Positions 3,944 through 32,521 of a stretch of DNA of 64,000 nucleotides are shown here, piece after piece. The notes below the pieces were generated by a model, which saw nothing but the letters and a program-made list of their open reading frames with translations, searched no databases and was not told the DNA's origin. The first letter of the stretch is position 1, and each line of letters opens with the position of its first letter. The stretch is from assembly GCA_016182045.1 (NCBI GenBank), contig JACOYE010000008.1:64502-128501 (forward strand). The letters run 5' to 3'. Origin of the DNA: Candidatus Microgenomates bacterium. Its GTDB lineage: Bacteria > Patescibacteriota > Microgenomatia > Daviesbacterales > UBA10151. The translations under genes were made by a program, and so were the position numbers.

Positions 3944-5010
3944 TAGACATATCCTTTTGCTTTCAAAAGTTCTGCTGTTAAAATTGCTCCACCTGCAGCC
4001 CCTCTAATGGTATTGTGTGAAAGCCCGACAAACTTAAATCCTTCCTCACTCTGCCTTAATCTGCCTGCAGCAATCCCCATACCATTACCTAAATTCCTAT
4101 CAAGCCTTGTTTGTGGTCTATCGTCTTCCTCAAAGTAGGTAATAAACGGGTTTGGAGCAGATGGCAAATTCAATTCATTTAAAGGATTGAACTTTTTCCA
4201 TTCTCTGATAATTTGTTTTTTGCTAATTTTTTTCTTAAAAGACACCGAAACTGATGCCATATGCCCATCCTCAAGCGGCACTCTGATACAAGTAGCGCTA
4301 ATACTTGGCCCGGCCAGTTCAACCTTGCCATCTACCAGTTTCCCCCAAATTTTTAAAGGTTCTTTCTCGCTTTTTTCTTCTTCACCACCAATAAAGGGAA
4401 TAATATTTTCTTCCATCTGGGGCCAACCTTTTAATGTTTTCCCGGCTCCTGATACTGCCTGTAAAGTAGTGACCACCACCTTTTTAATACCATACTTTAA
4501 TAAAGGACTCAGTATTGGTACATATGATTGGATAGAACAATTTGGTTTGACTACTATTAGTCCTTTTTCCCAACCACGGTTTTTCTTCTGTTTTAAGATT
4601 AACTTCAAGTGTTTCGGGTTTATCTCCGGCATAATCATCGGTACATCTTCAGTCCAGCGGTGGGCTGAGTTATTGGAAACCACCACCACATCCAAATCAG
4701 CAAACCTTTCCTCAATACTTCTGATTCTCTCTTTGTCCATATCCAAAGCTGAAAATACCAATCTTGTCTGGTTGGCAATTTTATGCAAATCTTTTTCCAC
4801 CGCTAATACCACCATTTTTTCCGCAGAATCAGGAATAGTCTCACTCATCACCCATCTATTTCTTACCGCATCCCCATATTGTTTACCTGCCGATTGGGGT
4901 GAAGCTGCCACTACCACTACTTCAAACCAGGGATGATAATTTAGCAGGGTGATGAATCTTTGACCAACCATTCCGGTGGCGCCTAATATGCCGACTGGTA
5001 TTTTTTTCAT
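3943..5010 (-). CDS. asd: aspartate-semialdehyde dehydrogenase
   Basis: 355 aa; N-terminal GATGMVGQ Rossmann motif, Asd-family length and context. Confidence 0.9.
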   Translation of the reverse strand: MKKIPVGILGATGMVGQRFITLLNYHPWFEVVVVAASPQSAGKQYGDAVRNRWVMSETIPDSAEKMVVLAVEKDLHKIANQTRLVFSALDMDKERIRSIEERFADLDVVVVSNNSAHRWTEDVPMIMPEINPKHLKLILKQKKNRGWEKGLIVVKPNCSIQSYVPILSPLLKYGIKKVVVTTLQAVSGAGKTLKGWPQMEENIIPFIGGEEEKSEKEPLKIWGKLVDGKVELAGPSISATCIRVPLEDGHMASVSVSFKKKISKKQIIREWKKFNPLNELNLPSAPNPFITYFEEDDRPQTRLDRNLGNGMGIAAGRLRQSEEGFKFVGLSHNTIRGAAGGAILTAELLKAKGYV

Positions 5011-5894
5011 ATCAGCTGGTGGGATTTTAGAACTGCTTTTAAACTATCCTTATTTTTCTCTTCCATACCTACTAAAGGCAATCTGAAAACTTCCTTGATT
5101 TTTCCCATTAAAGCCAATGCGGTTTTAACCGGGATGGGATTTGATTCAATAAAGTTGATATTCATCAAATCCAACCATTGATAATGCAATTTTTTGGCTT
5201 TCACAAAATCTCCGTTCAGCACAGCTGCCGTCAAATCAGACATGGCCTTTGGAACTTCGTTTGAAGCAACAGAAATAACTCCCACCCCTCCAACTGCCAT
5301 CAAAGGCAAGGTAAAAGCATCATCCCCTGACAAAACTGAAAAAGATGAAGATACACCTTTAATAATCTCCATCATCTGGGTAATATTACCTGAGGCCTCT
5401 TTCACCCCCACCACTTGTGGTACCTCGTTAGAAATTTTAATGGTGGTGGCAGCTAACACATTAGAACCGGTCCTGCCCGGCACATTATATAAAATGATTG
5501 GCAAATCCGTAGCCTTGGCTATAACTTTAAAGTGAGCCAAAAGGCCTAAAGGGGTAGGTTTATTATAGTATGGAGTAACATGCAAAAGGGCATCTGCCCC
5601 AGCTTGCTTGGCAATTTGGGAATAACCAATGGCCTTTTGCGTATCATTACTGCCAGCTCCGGCAATAACCGGCACTCTACCGTTTACTTCTTTGACCACT
5701 GTTTCCACCACCAATCTGTATTCATCCTGATCCAAAGTGACCGCTTCCCCGGTTGTCCCACAAGGCACTATCCCATCAATATGGCCCTTAATTTGCAACC
5801 GCACCAAATCCCTTAAGCTTTCCACATCAACTTTGCCATCTTCAAGAAATGGTGTCACCAGTGCTGTAATTGCTCCCTTAAATTTTTTACTCAA
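5007..5894 (-). CDS. dapA: 4-hydroxy-tetrahydrodipicolinate synthase
   Basis: 295 aa; DapA/NAL family (…GIVPCGTTGE…); overlaps asd by 4 bp. Confidence 0.9.
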   Translation of the reverse strand: MSKKFKGAITALVTPFLEDGKVDVESLRDLVRLQIKGHIDGIVPCGTTGEAVTLDQDEYRLVVETVVKEVNGRVPVIAGAGSNDTQKAIGYSQIAKQAGADALLHVTPYYNKPTPLGLLAHFKVIAKATDLPIILYNVPGRTGSNVLAATTIKISNEVPQVVGVKEASGNITQMMEIIKGVSSSFSVLSGDDAFTLPLMAVGGVGVISVASNEVPKAMSDLTAAVLNGDFVKAKKLHYQWLDLMNINFIESNPIPVKTALALMGKIKEVFRLPLVGMEEKNKDSLKAVLKSHQLI

Positions 5895-13288: not shown

Positions 13289-13543
13289 TTACTCAAAATC
13301 ACTATCCAAAACTTGAGGATTAACTTTCTCCAACTCTGCCTCCAAATCAGTAGCGGAATCAAACTGAAAAGTTTTGGGGGCGTTGGGGGTGGGGATGGGT
13401 GTTGGAGCTTTAGAAACAGTAGCAGATGATTGACTGGCAGGGCTAACTAAATTAGCTTTCCACCCCAGGGGTGCAAACCTAAATAATAAAAATCCCAAAA
13501 CTATAAAAACTATAATAATTATAGTTATTATTTTTTTATTCAT
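13289..13543 (-). CDS. hypothetical membrane-anchored small protein
   Basis: 84 aa; N-terminal TM helix, Pro/Thr-rich linker. Confidence 0.35.
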   Translation of the reverse strand: MNKKIITIIIIVFIVLGFLLFRFAPLGWKANLVSPASQSSATVSKAPTPIPTPNAPKTFQFDSATDLEAELEKVNPQVLDSDFE

Positions 13544-13561
13544 AATTCATAATTCTTAATT

Positions 13562-13924
13562 CTATATTGCCTTTCCCACCTCATTTTTAGCCCTTAATAC
13601 TTTCCCCTTTAAAGTAATCAGACTGGATTTAAGACTACCAACAGAGGAAAATTTTTGGGCCCGATGAAAGGCAATTGCCTCGGCAGCATAAGTTATCCAA
13701 TAATCAGCAGTTTCTATGGGTGTATCCACATTCCCAAAAGCCACTCTGGTTTCCAAAATCCCTTTTCTATTTCTTACCTCCTCCATAATAGCCGCCATTC
13801 TTACCACATCTTCCTCAAACCTGTCACAAACTTTTTGATTAACACCATCAAGGCTAGTAAAGGCAGACGCTTTAATAGGATATAAAAACAAAACAATAAT
13901 TAGAATAAAAATCCACTTTCTCAT
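13562..13924 (-). CDS. hypothetical secreted protein
   Basis: 120 aa; signal peptide (…YPIKASA|F). Confidence 0.4.
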   Translation of the reverse strand: MRKWIFILIIVLFLYPIKASAFTSLDGVNQKVCDRFEEDVVRMAAIMEEVRNRKGILETRVAFGNVDTPIETADYWITYAAEAIAFHRAQKFSSVGSLKSSLITLKGKVLRAKNEVGKAI

Positions 13925-13988: not shown

Positions 13989-14012
13989 GTCTACCCCATA
14001 CTTTGAACGATC
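13989..14012. promoter_or_regulatory. perfect 24-bp palindrome AACTTTGAACGATCGTTCAAAGTT upstream of the Clp-like gene
   Basis: read directly; ACGATCGT core also occurs in the flanks of the PaaX-like gene at 18742-19245. Confidence 0.4.
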
Positions 14013-14067
14013 GTTCAAAGTTTGTCCAAAATTCAGCTTGATAATTTCATTGAAAAAAAGCTGAAAC

Positions 14068-17828: not shown

Positions 17829-18736
17829 TTTATGTTTTTTAGATGTTCTCTTGCTATAAAAAATGATGTTATCAAAACTATGATACCACCAACTATTTGG
17901 GTGGAGTTTAGACTTTCTCTAAATAAAAAATATGCAAAAGGTGCACCAACTAAAGGCCCTAGGCTTCTTAAGGCAGACACAATCCAACCTTTAACAGTTT
18001 TTAAAGATACAAACCATAAAGTTAAGCTGAATATAAAAAATATTATGGTGGCTAAAATTAGATAAATCCATCCTAAAGCTTGAGACCAAACAGTGGGGTT
18101 TGAGAAGATGATGGCAAAAGGCAAAATCACCATTCCGCCACTCAGAAGCATTAAACTATTAGTTTGAGTTGCTCCTAAATTTTTGGCGAGTTTGGTGGCA
18201 GGAAAATATGATAGAGCAAAAAACATCATTGCCATGATAATAAACAGGTCCCCTAGCTGAGTCCTTCCTAAACTTCCCAACTTACCTCCCGTTGAAAGCA
18301 GAATAGCACCGAAAATATGCAAACTAAGCAATGCTAAATGTTTTGGTCTTACTTTCTCTCTTGCAAAAACCCAATACCAAAAAAGCACAAAATATGGTTC
18401 GGCTTTGGTAAAAAAGATGGCCTTAATTGAGTCTGTTAAGCTTAACCCTATGGAGAATGATAATTGCCCTAAAATTTGTCGGGAAATTATCAGAAAGATC
18501 AAGTCTTTATGATGTTTTTTTATTTGCTGAAGACTTAGTTTGGTTCCTCTTATGAATAGGGTGGTTAGCAGGATTGCTGCTGCCAAAAGTGGGCCAAAAC
18601 TTGCTGTGATAAATGGATTTAAAAGTTTGACCGCCCCGCCTCCGAAAACAGTGGCAATGCTTGAGGCAAAAGGTGAAAGTACAGCAAAGATTAATCCCCA
18701 ATGATGTGGTTTCATTTTGTTTCCGATCGTAAACAT
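17825..18736 (-). CDS. DMT/EamA-family membrane transporter
   Basis: 303 aa; about 10 predicted TM helices, duplicated EamA-like halves. Confidence 0.65.
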   Translation of the reverse strand: MFTIGNKMKPHHWGLIFAVLSPFASSIATVFGGGAVKLLNPFITASFGPLLAAAILLTTLFIRGTKLSLQQIKKHHKDLIFLIISRQILGQLSFSIGLSLTDSIKAIFFTKAEPYFVLFWYWVFAREKVRPKHLALLSLHIFGAILLSTGGKLGSLGRTQLGDLFIIMAMMFFALSYFPATKLAKNLGATQTNSLMLLSGGMVILPFAIIFSNPTVWSQALGWIYLILATIIFFIFSLTLWFVSLKTVKGWIVSALRSLGPLVGAPFAYFLFRESLNSTQIVGGIIVLITSFFIAREHLKNIK

Positions 18737-18741
18737 TTTGA

Positions 18742-19245
18742 TTAGAAATCCATATTATCTGATTCAATCACCATTACCCAGTCTTTTATCCCTAGTTTTT
18801 TTATAAAATCCCTGAGGGCTTGGGTACAGTTTTTCTTAGTTATCCAAACACTTTTTTGTAGCTGTTTAAAACCTAACCATTTTAGTTTATACCTTAATAG
18901 ATCGCGCGCTACTCTTCTTTTCTCCGGAACATCCCATATCACTATTCTCCATTTTCCATCCCACGGCTCATCAATTAATTTCATTTTTGTCCAAAGAGCC
19001 TTATCTCTTCCTGAATCTGTTAATCTAACAACCAATTCCTTATCATCAATTAGCTCAACAAATCCATTCTCTCTCAACCTTTTAAGAGCAAGTGCAAGGG
19101 TTGATTTCTTAAGTGGTCTGTCCCACCAACCGTAATAGGCGTAAAGATGCGGCTTATATGCAAAATGTTCAAATCTAATATACCCATCAACAGACTTCTC
19201 TAGAGTCAGAAGAACGAAATTAGTAAGGCTTTTTTTAGTAAACAT
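18742..19245 (-). CDS. PaaX-family-like transcriptional regulator (short form)
   Basis: 167 aa; N-terminal wHTH, C-terminal WDGKWRIVIWDVPEKRR…LGF…LQKSVW matching the PaaX C-terminal signature; paralog of 28111-28614. Confidence 0.6.
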   Translation of the reverse strand: MFTKKSLTNFVLLTLEKSVDGYIRFEHFAYKPHLYAYYGWWDRPLKKSTLALALKRLRENGFVELIDDKELVVRLTDSGRDKALWTKMKLIDEPWDGKWRIVIWDVPEKRRVARDLLRYKLKWLGFKQLQKSVWITKKNCTQALRDFIKKLGIKDWVMVIESDNMDF

Positions 19246-19289
19246 GTAATCATAGTATTCACGATCGTAAATAGTTTGTCAATATAATG

Positions 19290-27498: not shown

Positions 27499-28077
27499 AT
27501 GAGTAGCCCAGAGAGAAAGGTCATACAGGTAACAAAATTTCTTGCTCAAGAAACTGGCGACATTAGGGGCAAGTTAACCTGCTATCCCACTTCAATAGTC
27601 AATGCTGCTATTGCATTAGAAGTGGTGACTACTGAAGAAGCTCGGATAGCCCACACGGAAATTATTAACCAATTAATAACTATTCCAGACCTTTGGAATG
27701 GTCCAGTGCAAATAATCCGAGCACAGGATACAAGAATTGCAGATATAATTGAAAACTATTTACCGATTAGACTAGGTGTTGATGATTCAGAAATTGGGCG
27801 TTTGATGAACGTCCCAAGAACATATACTCAAATCTATCAGAACCTTCTTGAAAGAAGACAAGCGCATGTAATAATAGTTCCCGATAGGGCTCATGCTTAT
27901 GCAGTTATCGGGGCTAGACAAGAAGGCTTAGCATATATTGACCCGTTTGATCCCTATACAATTCATGTCGGTTCTGAGGAGTGGTTTAAGAAAAATTTTC
28001 AACCAGACAACGATGGATGTTTTGGTACCACTCCTGTCCGGCAACGAGTTAGGGTATTAGGTGTTTATGAGACATGA
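27499..28077 (+). CDS. hypothetical protein (possible papain-like Cys/His fold)
   Basis: 192 aa; ordered Cys (…LTCYPTS…), His (…RAHAYAV…), Asp (…YIDPFDP…) spacing; no confident family. Confidence 0.4.
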   Translation: MSSPERKVIQVTKFLAQETGDIRGKLTCYPTSIVNAAIALEVVTTEEARIAHTEIINQLITIPDLWNGPVQIIRAQDTRIADIIENYLPIRLGVDDSEIGRLMNVPRTYTQIYQNLLERRQAHVIIVPDRAHAYAVIGARQEGLAYIDPFDPYTIHVGSEEWFKKNFQPDNDGCFGTTPVRQRVRVLGVYET

Positions 28078-28080
28078 GGA

Positions 28081-28109
28081 TACATTTTTACGACGGCCGT
28101 CAAATAATG
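28081..28109. repeat. 29-bp direct repeat TACATTTTTACGACGGCCGTCAAATAATG (left copy)
   Basis: identical copy at 28617-28645; the two copies exactly bracket the PaaX-like gene. Confidence 0.7.
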
Positions 28110-28110
28110 A

Positions 28111-28614
28111 CTAGCGTCCGACATTATCTGATTCTAAAACAATTACCCAATCCTCTATTCCCACACTTTTTATAAATTCCCTTAAAACTTTTGTACAGTT
28201 TTTCTTAGTTGCCCAAACACTTTGTTGCCAATGAATAAAACCCCACTTCTTGAGGCTATCCCTCAATAAATTTCTTGCCTGTCTTCTTTTCTCAGGAACA
28301 TCAAATATGACTAGTCTCCACTTTCCATCCCACTTCTCATCTGACAGCTTAATACTTTCCCAAATAGCCTTTTGTCTTCCGTGATCTGTCAGCCGATATG
28401 CCAATTTTTCATCGCTGACAAAATCAATCATTCCTCTTTCCCTTAATCTTTTAACAGCCTGAGCAAGTGAGGCTTTTTTTAATGGTCTATCCCAACCAGC
28501 ACCCCATGCATAGGAGTATGAATGGTGGATTAAATCATCATATCTTACATATCCATCTATAGATTTTTCTAATGTAAGAAGAATAAACTTGGCGATACTA
28601 TTTTTTGTCCCCAT
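28111..28614 (-). CDS. PaaX-family-like transcriptional regulator (short form), paralog 2
   Basis: 167 aa; same architecture as 18742-19245 (…WDGKWRLVIFDVPEKRRQARNLLRDSLKKWGF…QQSVWA…). Confidence 0.6.
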   Translation of the reverse strand: MGTKNSIAKFILLTLEKSIDGYVRYDDLIHHSYSYAWGAGWDRPLKKASLAQAVKRLRERGMIDFVSDEKLAYRLTDHGRQKAIWESIKLSDEKWDGKWRLVIFDVPEKRRQARNLLRDSLKKWGFIHWQQSVWATKKNCTKVLREFIKSVGIEDWVIVLESDNVGR

Positions 28615-28616
28615 AA

Positions 28617-28645
28617 TACATTTTTACGACGGCCGTCAAATAATG
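28617..28645. repeat. 29-bp direct repeat (right copy)
   Basis: exact match to 28081-28109. Confidence 0.7.
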
Positions 28646-28693
28646 TCAACTTGTTTATAAATATAATGTTTGCTAGGATAATCTAAACATATT

Positions 28694-30733
28694 ATGCTTG
28701 ATAAGACTATTACATATTCCTTTTATCTCTTATTTTTCCTAACTCCTCTTTTTTGGACTTCCTTAAATTACGAACTGTTTGAGTATAATAAGATGTTTCT
28801 TACTTATGGATTAACTGTAATCATTGTCGGGGCATGGATTCTAAAAACGATAAACGATAAACGATTAACTTTTAAGCGCACTCCCTTGGATATTCCTCTT
28901 CTACTTTTTTTGGGAGCTAACATTTTTTCCACCATTCTTTCTATTGATACTCACATATCAATTTGGGGCTATTACTCAAGACAAAACGGCGGTCTTTTAT
29001 CTTTGATTGCTTATCTTCTACTCTACTGGGCATTTGTTTCAAATATGGATCTTAAAAAATCTTTGAATCTTTTAAAAGCAGCTTTCTTATCTGGTTTTAT
29101 TATTTCTCTATATGGCATTTTGGAACACTTCGGGGTGTCTCCTTCTTGTGTAATTCTAAGAGGTGAGTTTAATGCCTCATGTTGGGTGCAAGATGTCCAG
29201 GCCAGAGTGTTTGCTACCTTGGGCCAACCAAACTGGATGGCTGCCTATTTGGCCATGCTTATTTTTCCTGCCCTTTATTTCCTCCTCACATCCAAAAGCC
29301 GCATACTACATACTACATACTACATACTACTGATTATTATGTACCTGGCTTTTACCTTCACCTATTCCAGAGGACCAACATTAGGATTAATTGGTGGATT
29401 AGTGGTTTTTATTGGCCTTTATTTTATTCAGAATACTCGGAAAACTCAGAAAGACAGCGAATCAGTGTATCAGAGAATCCGATTATCTGAATTTCTGATT
29501 TCTCAGATATTCCGAGTCCTTCTGAGTTTTCTGGCAATTAACCTCCTTTTTGGGTCTGCCTTAACCAACTTCAGGTTAGTTTCCAAATTTGCCGCACCTG
29601 CCAGACCCGCTATCGCCCTTCCCGCCACAAACACTACTCAGCTTGAAACAGGAGGAACAGAATCCGGCCAGATCCGTTTTATAGTCTGGCAAGGAGCTCT
29701 AGAGATTTTCAAACACTACCCATTATTTGGTTCAGGAGTAGAAACCTTTGCCTATTCTTATTACCAATTCAGACCTGCCGAACACAATCTTACCTCAGAA
29801 TGGGACTTTCTCTATAACAAAGCGCATAACGAATACCTTAATTATTTGGCAACAACCGGAATCTTAGGTCTTAGCGCTTATAGTATAATCATTATAACTT
29901 TTATAATCTTTATACTAAAAAAGTTCAAAAAAGGGAATCTGCTGATTTTAAGCCTCCTTGCTAGCTACATTAGCTATCTAATCTACAACTTCTTCCTCTT
30001 TTCAGTAGTCACGATCGCCATCTTTTTCTATCTTTTCCCAGCCATTGCTTTCGTGGCCATAGACTCCACAAAGCCACTGAAATTTTCTCGACTTCTCACT
30101 TCTCACTTCTCACTTCTCACTTCCTACCTCTATCGTCGTACCTTCTATACCAAAATCGCCAAAGCTTTAGTCATTCTTTCTACCATCTACCTTCTATTTT
30201 CCATCTTCCAGCTCTGGTATGCCGATACCCGTTTTGCCAAGGGACAGAGAGCCTCGGAATTAGGCAATCCAGGACGAGCTTATAATTTACTGACCGAGGC
30301 TTTACAATTAAATGGTAATGAACCATTTTACAGAAGCGAACTTTCCTTTGCTGCAGCAGCTTCGGCTATAGCTCTTGAGGATTCCGAGGCCACCCTATCC
30401 GCAGCCCTAAAAGATGAGGCAATCAGAGAAATAGAGCTGGTCCTTAAAAATAGTCCCCAAAATGTCTCTTTTTGGCGGACAGCCATCAGAACCTATTTTG
30501 AGTTATCAGGCTTGGATAAAAATTACACTGATAAAACTCTTCAGGCTTTAGATCAGACAATCAAGCTGGCCCCAACTGATCCAAAACTATACTACAACAA
30601 GGCTTTAATACTCCAAACAATCAACAAAACTCAAGAAGCCATTAAGTCTTTGGAGAAAGCAATTGAGCTAAAACCGAACTATCAGGAAGCCATCCAGCAG
30701 CTTGAGGAAGCAACTTCATCAGCAAAACCATGA
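28694..30733 (+). CDS. O-antigen ligase/polymerase (Wzy)-like polytopic membrane protein with C-terminal TPR repeats
   Basis: 679 aa; ~12 TM helices with a large periplasmic loop, C-terminal TPR-like helices; contains three internal repeat/IR segments. Confidence 0.65.
   Translation: MLDKTITYSFYLLFFLTPLFWTSLNYELFEYNKMFLTYGLTVIIVGAWILKTINDKRLTFKRTPLDIPLLLFLGANIFSTILSIDTHISIWGYYSRQNGGLLSLIAYLLLYWAFVSNMDLKKSLNLLKAAFLSGFIISLYGILEHFGVSPSCVILRGEFNASCWVQDVQARVFATLGQPNWMAAYLAMLIFPALYFLLTSKSRILHTTYYILLIIMYLAFTFTYSRGPTLGLIGGLVVFIGLYFIQNTRKTQKDSESVYQRIRLSEFLISQIFRVLLSFLAINLLFGSALTNFRLVSKFAAPARPAIALPATNTTQLETGGTESGQIRFIVWQGALEIFKHYPLFGSGVETFAYSYYQFRPAEHNLTSEWDFLYNKAHNEYLNYLATTGILGLSAYSIIIITFIIFILKKFKKGNLLILSLLASYISYLIYNFFLFSVVTIAIFFYLFPAIAFVAIDSTKPLKFSRLLTSHFSLLTSYLYRRTFYTKIAKALVILSTIYLLFSIFQLWYADTRFAKGQRASELGNPGRAYNLLTEALQLNGNEPFYRSELSFAAAASAIALEDSEATLSAALKDEAIREIELVLKNSPQNVSFWRTAIRTYFELSGLDKNYTDKTLQALDQTIKLAPTDPKLYYNKALILQTINKTQEAIKSLEKAIELKPNYQEAIQQLEEATSSAKP
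29303..29330. repeat. (ATACTAC)x4 perfect heptanucleotide tandem repeat inside the Wzy-like CDS
   Basis: read directly; unit length is not a multiple of 3. Confidence 0.85.
29437..29534. repeat. ~100-bp imperfect inverted-repeat (MITE-like) element inside the Wzy-like CDS
   Basis: termini CGGAAAACTCAGAAAG / CCTTCTGAGTTTTCTGG (14/16 complementary), internal TCAGA/TCTGA palindromes; encodes the hydrophilic stretch …NTRKTQKDSESVYQRIRLSEF…. Confidence 0.4.
30084..30127. repeat. (TTCTCAC)n heptanucleotide tandem repeat (4 perfect + degenerate units) inside the Wzy-like CDS
   Basis: read directly; the same repeat occurs inside fmt at 31863-31897. Confidence 0.85.
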
Positions 30734-31580: not shown

Positions 31581-32521
31581 GTATAATTTCCAAACTCAAT
31601 ATGAAAACATTACAACAACCACAAGTTTGGCCCAAGCTTTATGAAACTATTCTGATTAAGGAGGAGATTAAAAAATATTTACATAAGATGCCAAGACACA
31701 ACATAGAAATTGTTTTTTGGGGCTCTGATCCATGGTCTGTCTATGTTCTGAAAGCCTTAGAGGATAATTTTGATGTCAAGGCTATAGTTACTGCTTCGGA
31801 TTCATCTGTAGCAAATTATTTTAAAGGTCCAATCCTAACTCCTGAAAAGCTAGACCATGACTTTCTCACTTCTCACTTCTCATTTCTCACTTCTGATCTA
31901 TTTATAGTTGCCTCCTATGGCAAAATAATTCCACAATCCATCTTAAACATTCCAAAATTCGCAAGTTTAAATGTCCATCCATCACTACTCCCCAAATACA
32001 GAGGTTCATCTCCGGTACCGGCCACCATTCTTATGGGAGACAAAATTACAGGAGTAACCATTATTAAGATGGATGCTAAAGTGGATCATGGGCCGATTGT
32101 TTCTACAAAAGAAATTAGCTTAACAGGACAGGAAAATTCCCTATTTTTGATCAATAAATTATTTCAACTCGGAGCAGATCTGTTAGTAAAAATAATACCG
32201 GATTATATGACAGGCAAAATAAAATTAATGCCCCAAAATCACCTAAAAGCCACATATTGTGAAAGGCTAACCAGAAACAGTGGTTATTTTAAAATTGATA
32301 ATCCTCCATCACCTGAGAAACTGGATAGAATGATCCGGGCATATTATCCCTGGCCGGGAGTTTGGACCCGCTTTCGCCCTTCGGGCTCCAGCGGGCAAGC
32401 CAAAATAGTAAAATTCCTACCAGGTGGGCTACTTCAAATGGAGGGTAAAAAAGCTATATCTTACCAAGACTTCCTCAACGGCTACCCAGATTTTCCGATC
32501 AAAGAGCTTCTCAAAGTATGA
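31577..32521 (+). CDS. fmt: methionyl-tRNA formyltransferase
   Basis: formyltransferase N-domain (NVHPSLLPKYRG) and C-domain; a later start at MPRHNIEIVFWG (31688) is possible; 4-bp overlap with def. Confidence 0.85.
   Translation: MSIISKLNMKTLQQPQVWPKLYETILIKEEIKKYLHKMPRHNIEIVFWGSDPWSVYVLKALEDNFDVKAIVTASDSSVANYFKGPILTPEKLDHDFLTSHFSFLTSDLFIVASYGKIIPQSILNIPKFASLNVHPSLLPKYRGSSPVPATILMGDKITGVTIIKMDAKVDHGPIVSTKEISLTGQENSLFLINKLFQLGADLLVKIIPDYMTGKIKLMPQNHLKATYCERLTRNSGYFKIDNPPSPEKLDRMIRAYYPWPGVWTRFRPSGSSGQAKIVKFLPGGLLQMEGKKAISYQDFLNGYPDFPIKELLKV
31863..31897. repeat. (TTCTCAC)n heptanucleotide tandem repeat inside fmt
   Basis: read directly; encodes …LTSHFSFLTS…, as the Wzy-like copy encodes …LTSHFSLLTS…. 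Confidence 0.85.
32351..32400. repeat. GC-rich palindromic in-frame insert in fmt (CCCGCTTTCGCCCTTCGGGCTCCAGCGGG; coding …RFRPSGSSGQA…)
   Basis: read directly; TTCGCCCTTCGGGC core resembles the 10431-10512 element. Confidence 0.45.

Follow-up and report, generated by a model that had tools for sequence, protein, structure and literature searches.

We analysed a stretch of 64,000 nucleotides from a Candidatus Microgenomates bacterium (Daviesbacteria; contig JACOYE010000008.1, positions 64,502 to 128,501 of the forward strand; hereafter the window), in which a small gene encoding a PaaX-like protein, REG28, is enclosed by two copies of a short repeat. The source genome was covered by this 64-kb window and other genomes by flanks of at most 10 kb. 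The 29-mer TACATTTTTACGACGGCCGTCAAATAATG has two exact matches in the window and no more, at 28081-28109 and 28617-28645; shuffled sequences gave an expectation of none. The exact repeat is one base longer than the first-pass annotation had reported, 30 nt (28080-28109 and 28616-28645), and this pair is the sole perfect direct repeat of such length in the window. Between the copies lies the 504-bp REG28 gene on the minus strand (28111-28614, 167 amino acids). Its open reading frame (ORF) was confirmed and fills the interval as had been noted, with 1 nt between it and each copy. Both copies, read on the minus strand, have the core CGGCCG, at 28630-28635 in the upstream copy (UP; 28616-28645) and at 28094-28099 in the downstream copy (DN; 28080-28109). 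The ten neighbouring genes that were scanned include those for MreB, Wzy/TPR, PBP2, EamA, DprA and ClpC.

The first-pass annotation had also pointed to a paralog with related flanks, and this was confirmed. REG18 (18742-19245, minus strand, 167 amino acids) is 59% identical to REG28 and has related CGATCG-centred sequences on both sides, with cores starting at 18724 and 19262. The UP site of REG18 (19248-19281, minus strand, core 19262-19267) lies inside a promoter match, and the DN site (18710-18743, minus strand, core 18724-18729) holds the REG18 stop codon in its left arm. Both candidate start codons of the EamA gene (18736 and 18715) fall within this DN site. A third paralog was sought in the window and none was found.

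The UP copy of REG28 lies within a predicted sigma-70-like promoter on the minus strand (28620-28649), which reads TTGACA-18-AAAAAT from 28649 to 28620, or alternatively TTGACA-17-TAAAAA, and has 10 of 12 consensus matches. The promoter ends 5-6 nt before the ATG at 28614. For REG18 the UP copy lies within TTGACA-17-AATACT (19282 to 19254), which ends 8 nt before the ATG. The UP dyad of REG28 fills the promoter spacer and the -10 region, and the divergent Wzy gene adjoins it. No Shine-Dalgarno sequence is visible ahead of REG28 or REG18 and, because the promoters end only 5-8 nt before the ATG, the mRNAs are predicted from the sequence to be probably leaderless. PaaX binds the dyad TGATTC-N27-GAATCA and represses Px, its own promoter, by keeping RNA polymerase away (PMC9493321). 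From its position and by analogy with PaaX, the UP copy is probably an autoregulatory operator.

The DN copy of REG28 fills the 33-nt gap between the convergent stops of u192 (27499-28077) and REG28, and begins 1 nt after the REG28 stop. It is not promoter-like, as the stop-codon region stands where the -35 element would be, and in one ortholog group the -10 element reads TACAAA in the DN copy as compared to TACATT in the UP copy. DN copies that are devoid of promoter elements fit a pure binding site. The earlier proposal that the repeats are operators flanking both divergent promoters therefore held for the UP copy, which lies in the regulator's own promoter beside the divergent Wzy gene, but not for the DN copy between convergent stops. 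No terminator was called at the REG28 DN copy in our scan and no T-tract follows it. The DN copies did not fold better as RNA than shuffled sequences (z = -0.63 for REG28 and +0.70 for REG18). The DN copy is a putative second operator, which could act by looping, as a roadblock to read-through, or both. The 192-amino-acid u192 ORF gave no Pfam or PADLOC match and has no counterpart in two related loci, L103 and L001.

Both window proteins matched PF20803 (PaaX_M), with E = 6e-22 for REG28 and 4e-25 for REG18 (78 and 88 bits; cut-off 24). The AlphaFold2 model of REG28 (pLDDT 83.8) predicts a winged helix-turn-helix, a linker helix and then a beta-alpha-beta-beta-alpha-beta domain. The best solved structure in the Foldseek search was E. 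coli PaaX (PDB 8a39), followed by Rv0674 and 3l09; 3kfw also matched, and Cas2 chains were among the structural matches, aligned to the C-terminal domain. The family match and the best structural match bear out the original description of these proteins as PaaX-like. TIGR02277, the PaaX equivalog model, gave 37.4 and 36.0 bits, far below its cut-off of 264.55, and REG28 and REG18 are thus not PaaX orthologs. The PaaX_C ligand domain had no match at E <= 1 in the window proteins, the model has no further domain, and the chain ends at residue 167. The profile matches and the predicted fold characterise REG28 and REG18 as truncated PaaX-family regulators, with a winged helix and a Cas2-like domain and without the ligand domain. 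Apart from PaaX_M and Cas2, only weak helix-turn-helix matches were obtained for the window proteins, and these profile searches found no transposase or recombinase domain. No HUH or DDE catalytic motifs are conserved in the family, which has no invariant His or Tyr.

The family is large, with 3709 cluster representatives at E <= 0.001 and 565 at E <= 1e-10, mostly of 165-200 amino acids. It is concentrated in bacteria of the candidate phyla radiation, and several genomes hold more than one paralog (CP066688.1 has at least three). In public records, including those of NCBI, its members are often named 'CRISPR-associated endonuclease Cas2' (REG28 itself, and P0001, P0030, P0034, P0073, P0343 and P0372). 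The Cas2 model TIGR01573 gave 27.6 bits for REG28 and 18.2 for REG18, with a cut-off of 24.5; Pfam Cas2 gave 23.5 with a cut-off of 23.8, and PADLOC Cas2 models also matched. The invariant Asp105 and the Q-x-S-V motif of the family match Cas2 hallmarks. The likely source of the name is TIGR01573, which REG28 passes by a narrow margin. The winged-helix fusion and the lack of a repeat array in the window indicate that the name is most likely erroneous. Nothing like a CRISPR array, with repeats in many regularly spaced copies, was present in the window, and neither cas1 nor other cas genes were found in a scan limited to the ten neighbouring genes. Close to the other proteins so named, too, neither an array nor cas1 was observed. 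There were no paa genes among the neighbours of the window genes and no restriction-modification genes adjacent to the window unit.

Next we compared relatives, at 22 genome loci and 80 metagenome loci encoding homologs (cited by their L numbers). The wider sample comprised 92 loci, of 26-90% identity, from Daviesbacteria and other candidate-phyla bacteria. For distant homologs the start codon was assigned by rule. The nulls built from mismatched loci contain related loci and are therefore conservative. In 23 of 24 close loci the dyad CA-N9-CG[AG][TC]CG-N9-TG was found on both sides of the gene. In close homologs the UP centre usually lies about 18 nt 5' of the ATG, a constant offset that fits a promoter-embedded dyad and a leaderless mRNA, and the DN centre usually lies 14-16 nt 3' of the stop, with the stop codon in the left arm. 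UP and DN dyads were identical at 24 or more of 40 positions at 74 of the 92 loci as well as at the two window genes, 76 in all; among mismatched loci the 95th percentile was 23 and the 99th percentile 26. In an independent test with 24-nt windows, 54 of 86 loci exceeded the 99th percentile of the mismatched-locus null, and several further loci have degenerate pairs. The site-gene-site bracket is a trait of the family, and its recurrence across about 80% of the 92 loci led us to reject chance or local duplication as its origin.

The sites are 30-48 bp long and have cores mostly of the CGATCG or CGGCCG type. Distant members have long perfect palindromes, of about 48 bp in L076, with the core CTATAG, CATATG or CAATTG at some loci. 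The spacing of UP and DN sites is about 520-650 bp across loci, with a centre-to-centre median of 580 bp (536-538 bp in the window). The gene beyond the DN copy is co-directional at 40 loci, convergent at 14 and not close at 19, and in co-directional contexts the DN copy takes up the whole junction. Since the DN copy is present regardless of what lies downstream, it belongs to the regulator unit.

The two copies at a locus change together. Outside the core, paired copies were 72% identical within a locus as compared to 43% between loci, and for 14 of 23 loci the best-matching site was the locus's own partner. Of 65 pairs, 52 share the core hexamer and 13 have different ones. In close orthologs the central dinucleotide varies between genomes (AT, AC, GC), yet it is equal in both copies of each. 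We looked for a recognition-helix code and found no residue that predicts the central dinucleotide; column 48 was suggestive in six orthologs and was contradicted by L001.

In several pairs the likeness is near-perfect (39-40 of 40 positions). A direct orientation of the copies fitted better at 42 loci and an inverted one at 11, with both equal at 12. Asymmetric cores such as CGACCG mostly point one way in both copies. In L079 and L080 the DN copy is the exact reverse complement of the UP copy (40/40), including the asymmetric positions. At L001, which encodes a REG28 ortholog, the copies are only 25/40 alike, and the perfect 30-mer of the window is the extreme of this trend in likeness. Since a symmetric dimer needs neither near-perfect identity at asymmetric positions nor a shared orientation, it is likely that gene conversion or a similar copying process acts on the site pairs.

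The sites are found almost exclusively at these genes. Among 414 kb, 59 strong dyads lie at the ends of the regulator genes and 9 elsewhere, and shuffled sequences gave 0-1. The 64-kb window has one orphan site. The first-pass annotation had placed a 24-nt perfect palindrome at 13989-14012; the palindrome exists, but its true place is 13999-14022, with one mismatch to the quoted 24-mer. The perfect portion is the 22-mer ACTTTGAACGATCGTTCAAAGT at 14000-14021, which has no strand and a CGATCG core and is a candidate third operator. It agrees with the UP site of REG18 in at least 22 of 30 positions and lies after the ClpC stop, upstream of the genes for two small secreted or membrane proteins (13562-13924 and 13289-13543; signal-peptide or transmembrane). 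L103/L104 has an orphan CGATCG dyad at the equivalent intergenic spot. Orphan dyads of L106 lie at position 3977, before a HAD hydrolase gene, and in a region homologous to u120/u84. Three sites are present at some loci. Orphan sites of this kind would be expected of an ordinary transcription factor that has a few further targets, and they could also be relics. Around one regulator gene, L093 and L094 carry 3 or 4 copies of the cognate palindrome.

In Daviesbacteria, many units were found near tRNA genes, about 55-110 nt upstream (L002, L006, L010, L011, L015, L017, L018, L020, L027, L032 and L040). The tRNAs are Leu-CAA, Trp and Thr, Pro and Arg, and Arg-TCG; they are mostly divergent, with the UP operator in the shared promoter region. 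In L002 and L006 the unit sits within a Thr-Thr-Trp tRNA cluster. Adjacency to tRNA genes as an integration signal was considered and rejected, as it is the 5' side of the tRNA that faces the unit and there was no enrichment across the wider family.

The first-pass annotation had left room for a movable cassette, and we compared related genomes for presence or absence of the unit. The whole site-gene-site unit was found to vary at two loci. The genome of L103/L104 shares MreB and Wzy with the window, an unrelated small ORF (u177) stands where u192 would be, and the REG28 unit is absent. At this empty locus a 50-nt gap with no CGNNCG core is followed by renewed homology to the window, which sets in at the outer end of the UP copy (28645/28646). 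At the second locus the PBP2-DprA gap is 25, 1 and 2 nt in the Daviesbacteria L107, L108 and L110, with no unit and no site, and in many other genomes a REG18-type unit occupies this position. By its host genes the occupied L016 groups with the empty L107 and L110. Homology breaks at the UP outer edge in the comparisons L020/L021, L014/L017 and L016/L037, and the window and L105 cease to be homologous at the outer edge of the REG18 DN site.

REG18 is 90% identical to its L103 copy and 85% to its L105 copy, as compared to 60-70% for host genes. The tract from about 19270, at the UP site, to about 17770, with REG18 and EamA, has 90-97% nucleotide identity to L103/L104, and the surrounding PBP2, DprA, ClpC and TopA are about 60-73% identical. 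This suggests that the tract was recently exchanged horizontally or recombined, the upstream edge being at the REG18 UP site. The REG18 lineage stays after PBP2 across genomes with proteins 58-72% identical. No near-identical copies were found in differing contexts, and pairs at least 93% identical share flanks wherever these could be compared. No target duplication was seen outside the repeats (GAGG... and ...TCAAC are not duplicated). A deletion variant was sought among contigs encoding exactly u192 or exactly REG28, and all five were occupied. The site-gene-site unit is a discrete one, which genomes can acquire or lose and which passes between them. No site is left at the empty loci, and we therefore rejected the repeats as a target-site duplication or an excision scar. 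The repeats do not look like excision partners or a duplicated target, and of the cassette idea the presence or absence of the whole unit stood, while excision between the repeats found no support.

Small accessory modules accumulate in this neighbourhood. In L105 two toxin-antitoxin pairs (RHH-PIN and MazE-PIN; 1321-1967 and 4464-5143) have been inserted close to the REG18-type unit, within the pyr/mreC region; in the window and in L103 this region is without them. The MreB-Wzy interval is a variable island: L103 has an unrelated 177-amino-acid gene there, and L001 has MNT/HEPN-like and other small toxin-antitoxin-like genes. Elsewhere in the window the heptamer TTCTCAC is repeated four times in tandem at 30093-30120 and at 31863-31890, within two plus-strand genes (Wzy/TPR and a 314-amino-acid ORF); these arrays belong to a 64-nt repeat that is 77% identical.

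We consider it probable, from the sequences and by analogy with PaaX, that both 30-nt repeats are operators of the protein encoded between them, with autorepression at the UP copy and a second operator at the DN copy. The first-pass annotation had already raised the operator reading, and it came out as the best supported one through comparative evidence, namely the recurrence of the bracket in the family, the co-variation of the copies and the nearly exclusive placement of the sites, together with the PaaX analogy; from these we infer that the protein binds its sites. A dimer bound at the UP copy would keep RNA polymerase off the promoter and so put the gene under negative autoregulation, in the manner of PaaX at Px. 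The DN copy would cooperate with the UP copy through a DNA loop of about 540 bp, and/or protein bound to it would form a roadblock, shielding the regulator gene from read-through. In the window such a roadblock would separate the convergent u192 and REG28 transcripts, between which there is no intrinsic terminator. The likeness of the copies would be kept by selection for binding plus sequence copying by gene conversion, and the module would be gained, lost and exchanged by genomes as one unit.

Several points weigh against this interpretation. The encoded protein is named as the binder from association and the PaaX analogy, and looping and roadblock are proposals for the role of the DN copy. 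A regulator with nearly all of its sites at its own gene is unusual. Identities from 30/30 to 40/40 and the shared orientation exceed what dimer binding needs, and a copying process is required besides selection for binding. The partial rank correlation of site divergence with protein divergence was weak, 0.24 for the DNA-binding domain and 0.09 for the C-terminal domain, and was seen in closer pairs only. Finally, presence and absence of the unit, breakpoints at site edges and horizontal exchange are equally expected of the ends of a mobile element.

Transposases bind their own terminal repeats, and many insertion sequences have a promoter in their upstream end. The two sites could accordingly be the ends of a small mobile or exchangeable module, both bound by the encoded winged-helix/Cas2-like protein, with the UP end doubling as promoter; being palindromic, the site could serve as a direct or an inverted end alike. 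We regard this as unlikely. In its favour, the whole unit is missing in L103/L104 with homology resuming at the UP outer end, PBP2 and DprA lie 1-25 nt apart in L107, L108 and L110 while their clade-mate L016 is occupied, and breakpoints fall at the outer edges of the sites (the REG18 locus of the window, W18, against L105, and L020/L021, L014/L017 and L016/L037). REG18 is closer to its L103 and L105 copies (85-90%) than host genes are (60-70%), copies can be perfect (several of 39-40/40, and the perfect inverted ones in L079 and L080), several genomes have more than one paralog, and the invariant Asp105 and Q-x-S-V are Cas2 hallmarks. Against mobility, neither a transposase nor a recombinase domain came up in the profile searches of the window proteins, near-identical copies in different contexts were lacking (pairs at 93% or more share flanks where comparable), and the window paralogs are only 59% identical, with different sites. 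Moreover, no target duplication is visible outside the repeats, the REG18 lineage has kept its position after PBP2 across 58-72% protein identity, the five strain-level contigs are all occupied, and a compact genome alone could give tight boundaries. A stronger form of this explanation, that the units are a new class of minimal selfish or exchangeable modules in candidate-phyla-radiation bacteria whose Cas2-like-domain protein binds and possibly processes the palindromic repeats of 30-48 bp around its own gene, which would let the whole unit be inserted, swapped or lost, seems to us quite improbable. If true, it would tie Cas2-fold proteins to CRISPR-repeat-like palindromic repeats outside CRISPR systems.

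It is extremely unlikely that the repeats serve as mutually pairing recombination sites, like Xer/dif-type sites or a long target-site duplication, between which the gene is excised or inverted. In the window they are direct and perfect repeats, their arms around a 6-bp centre resemble dif or lox, the centre is identical in both copies at 52 of 65 loci as strand exchange would require, and perfect inverted copies occur in L079 and L080. However, the empty loci (gaps of 50, 25, 1 and 2 nt) have no single leftover site, the cores differ in 13 of 65 pairs, the mean pair is only 72% alike outside the core, no recombinase gene is adjacent, and the strain-level contigs include no deletion variant. 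The palindromes might also act as RNA hairpins in termination, in mRNA stabilisation or in hiding the next start codon. Such a role would agree with dyad symmetry that is kept while the arm sequences change, with a DN copy directly after the stop codon, with the very stable fold predicted for distant members (L076, -33.9 kcal/mol, z = -10) and with a weak excess of G-U-type over A-C-type dyad mismatches (137 vs 102). We nevertheless give it hardly any credence, as the window DN copies fold no better than shuffles, no T-tract follows the site and no terminator was called, no Rfam family matched, and the UP copy of the close family lies upstream of the predicted transcription start and would remain untranscribed. 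The specific bases conserved (the CG..CG core and the outer CA/TG) also go beyond mere pairing. Another host factor could bind the sites, as the binder is identified by association and the cores CGATCG, CGGCCG and CTATAG are generic palindromic hexamers, or the sites could be a by-product of local duplication in this genome alone. Either is very improbable, since the pattern occurs in about 80% of 92 loci from many genomes; the sites also differ between paralogs of one genome and track the adjacent gene, which a single shared factor cannot explain, and restriction-modification genes are not adjacent.

The family is large and found mainly in candidate-phyla-radiation bacteria, in which gene regulation has hardly been studied. 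Should the bracket prove to be an operator pair, the Cas2 label could be corrected and each member would gain a predicted binding site, a promoter and a likely leaderless start. The layout would be an autoregulatory one in which the regulator gene is fenced by its own operators, and it may insulate the gene within very compact operons. Should the units be mobile, few known autonomous modules would be smaller, and the units would have a Cas2-fold protein and repeat-like ends. In the literature that we searched, no paper linked PaaX with Cas2 or Patescibacteria and none described such brackets; the rule of a second operator abutting the stop, the concerted evolution of the pair and the module behaviour were not found described there.

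With insertion sequences and REP/RAYT elements the units share a gene for a DNA-binding protein bounded by copies of a palindromic site, a promoter in the upstream end and presence or absence as a whole. Unlike in those elements, there is no DDE or HUH domain and no invariant His or Tyr. A dispersed family as in REP/RAYT is not seen here, with one orphan in 64 kb and 9 non-flanking strong dyads in 414 kb, and identical copies in different contexts or a visible target duplication, as for insertion sequences, are likewise missing. Xer/dif-type cassettes differ in that the empty loci here keep no single site.

Auxiliary operators and looping are known for the repressors LacI (O1/O2/O3), lambda CI (OL/OR) and phage 186 CI (flanking sites), and roadblock repression is known as well. 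As in these systems, one putative operator lies at the promoter and the other at a distance of a few hundred bp (here about 520-650 bp). The difference is that the second putative operator here always abuts the regulator's own stop and that the bracket encloses the regulator gene only; looping and roadblock are proposals here.

The C-terminal domain matches Cas2 models, although only REG28, and not REG18, scores above the TIGR01573 cut-off, Cas2 chains are among the structural matches, and the flanking 30-nt, partly palindromic direct repeats are of CRISPR-repeat size. REG28 is, however, a 167-amino-acid winged-helix fusion, whereas Cas2 is a stand-alone protein of about 90-100 amino acids encoded next to cas1 and a CRISPR array. 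The window has no repeat array and gave no match to a Rfam CRISPR family, and its two repeats enclose a gene instead of spacers. By architecture and context the unit falls outside Cas2.

PaaX of E. coli and Pseudomonas (8a39; TIGR02277), which responds to phenylacetyl-CoA, also has an N-terminal winged helix followed by a Cas2-like middle domain. Its operator is a long dyad, TGATTC-N27-GAATCA, comparable to the 30-48-bp dyads of this family, and it represses its own promoter (PMC9493321); the UP copy is placed to do likewise, with binding predicted by this analogy. In contrast to PaaX, REG28 and REG18 have 167 amino acids without PaaX_C (TIGR02277, 37 bits against 264), no paa genes lie near REG28, and its mRNA is predicted to be leaderless. 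As a rule, a second copy of the putative operator stands directly after the stop codon in this family. The Cas2 motifs D-x-P-E and Q-x-S-V-W are better kept here than in E. coli PaaX. The unit is thus outside the PaaX equivalog by score, C-terminal domain and gene context, but resembles a PaaX-type autorepressor by its fold, its operator geometry and the placement of its promoter.

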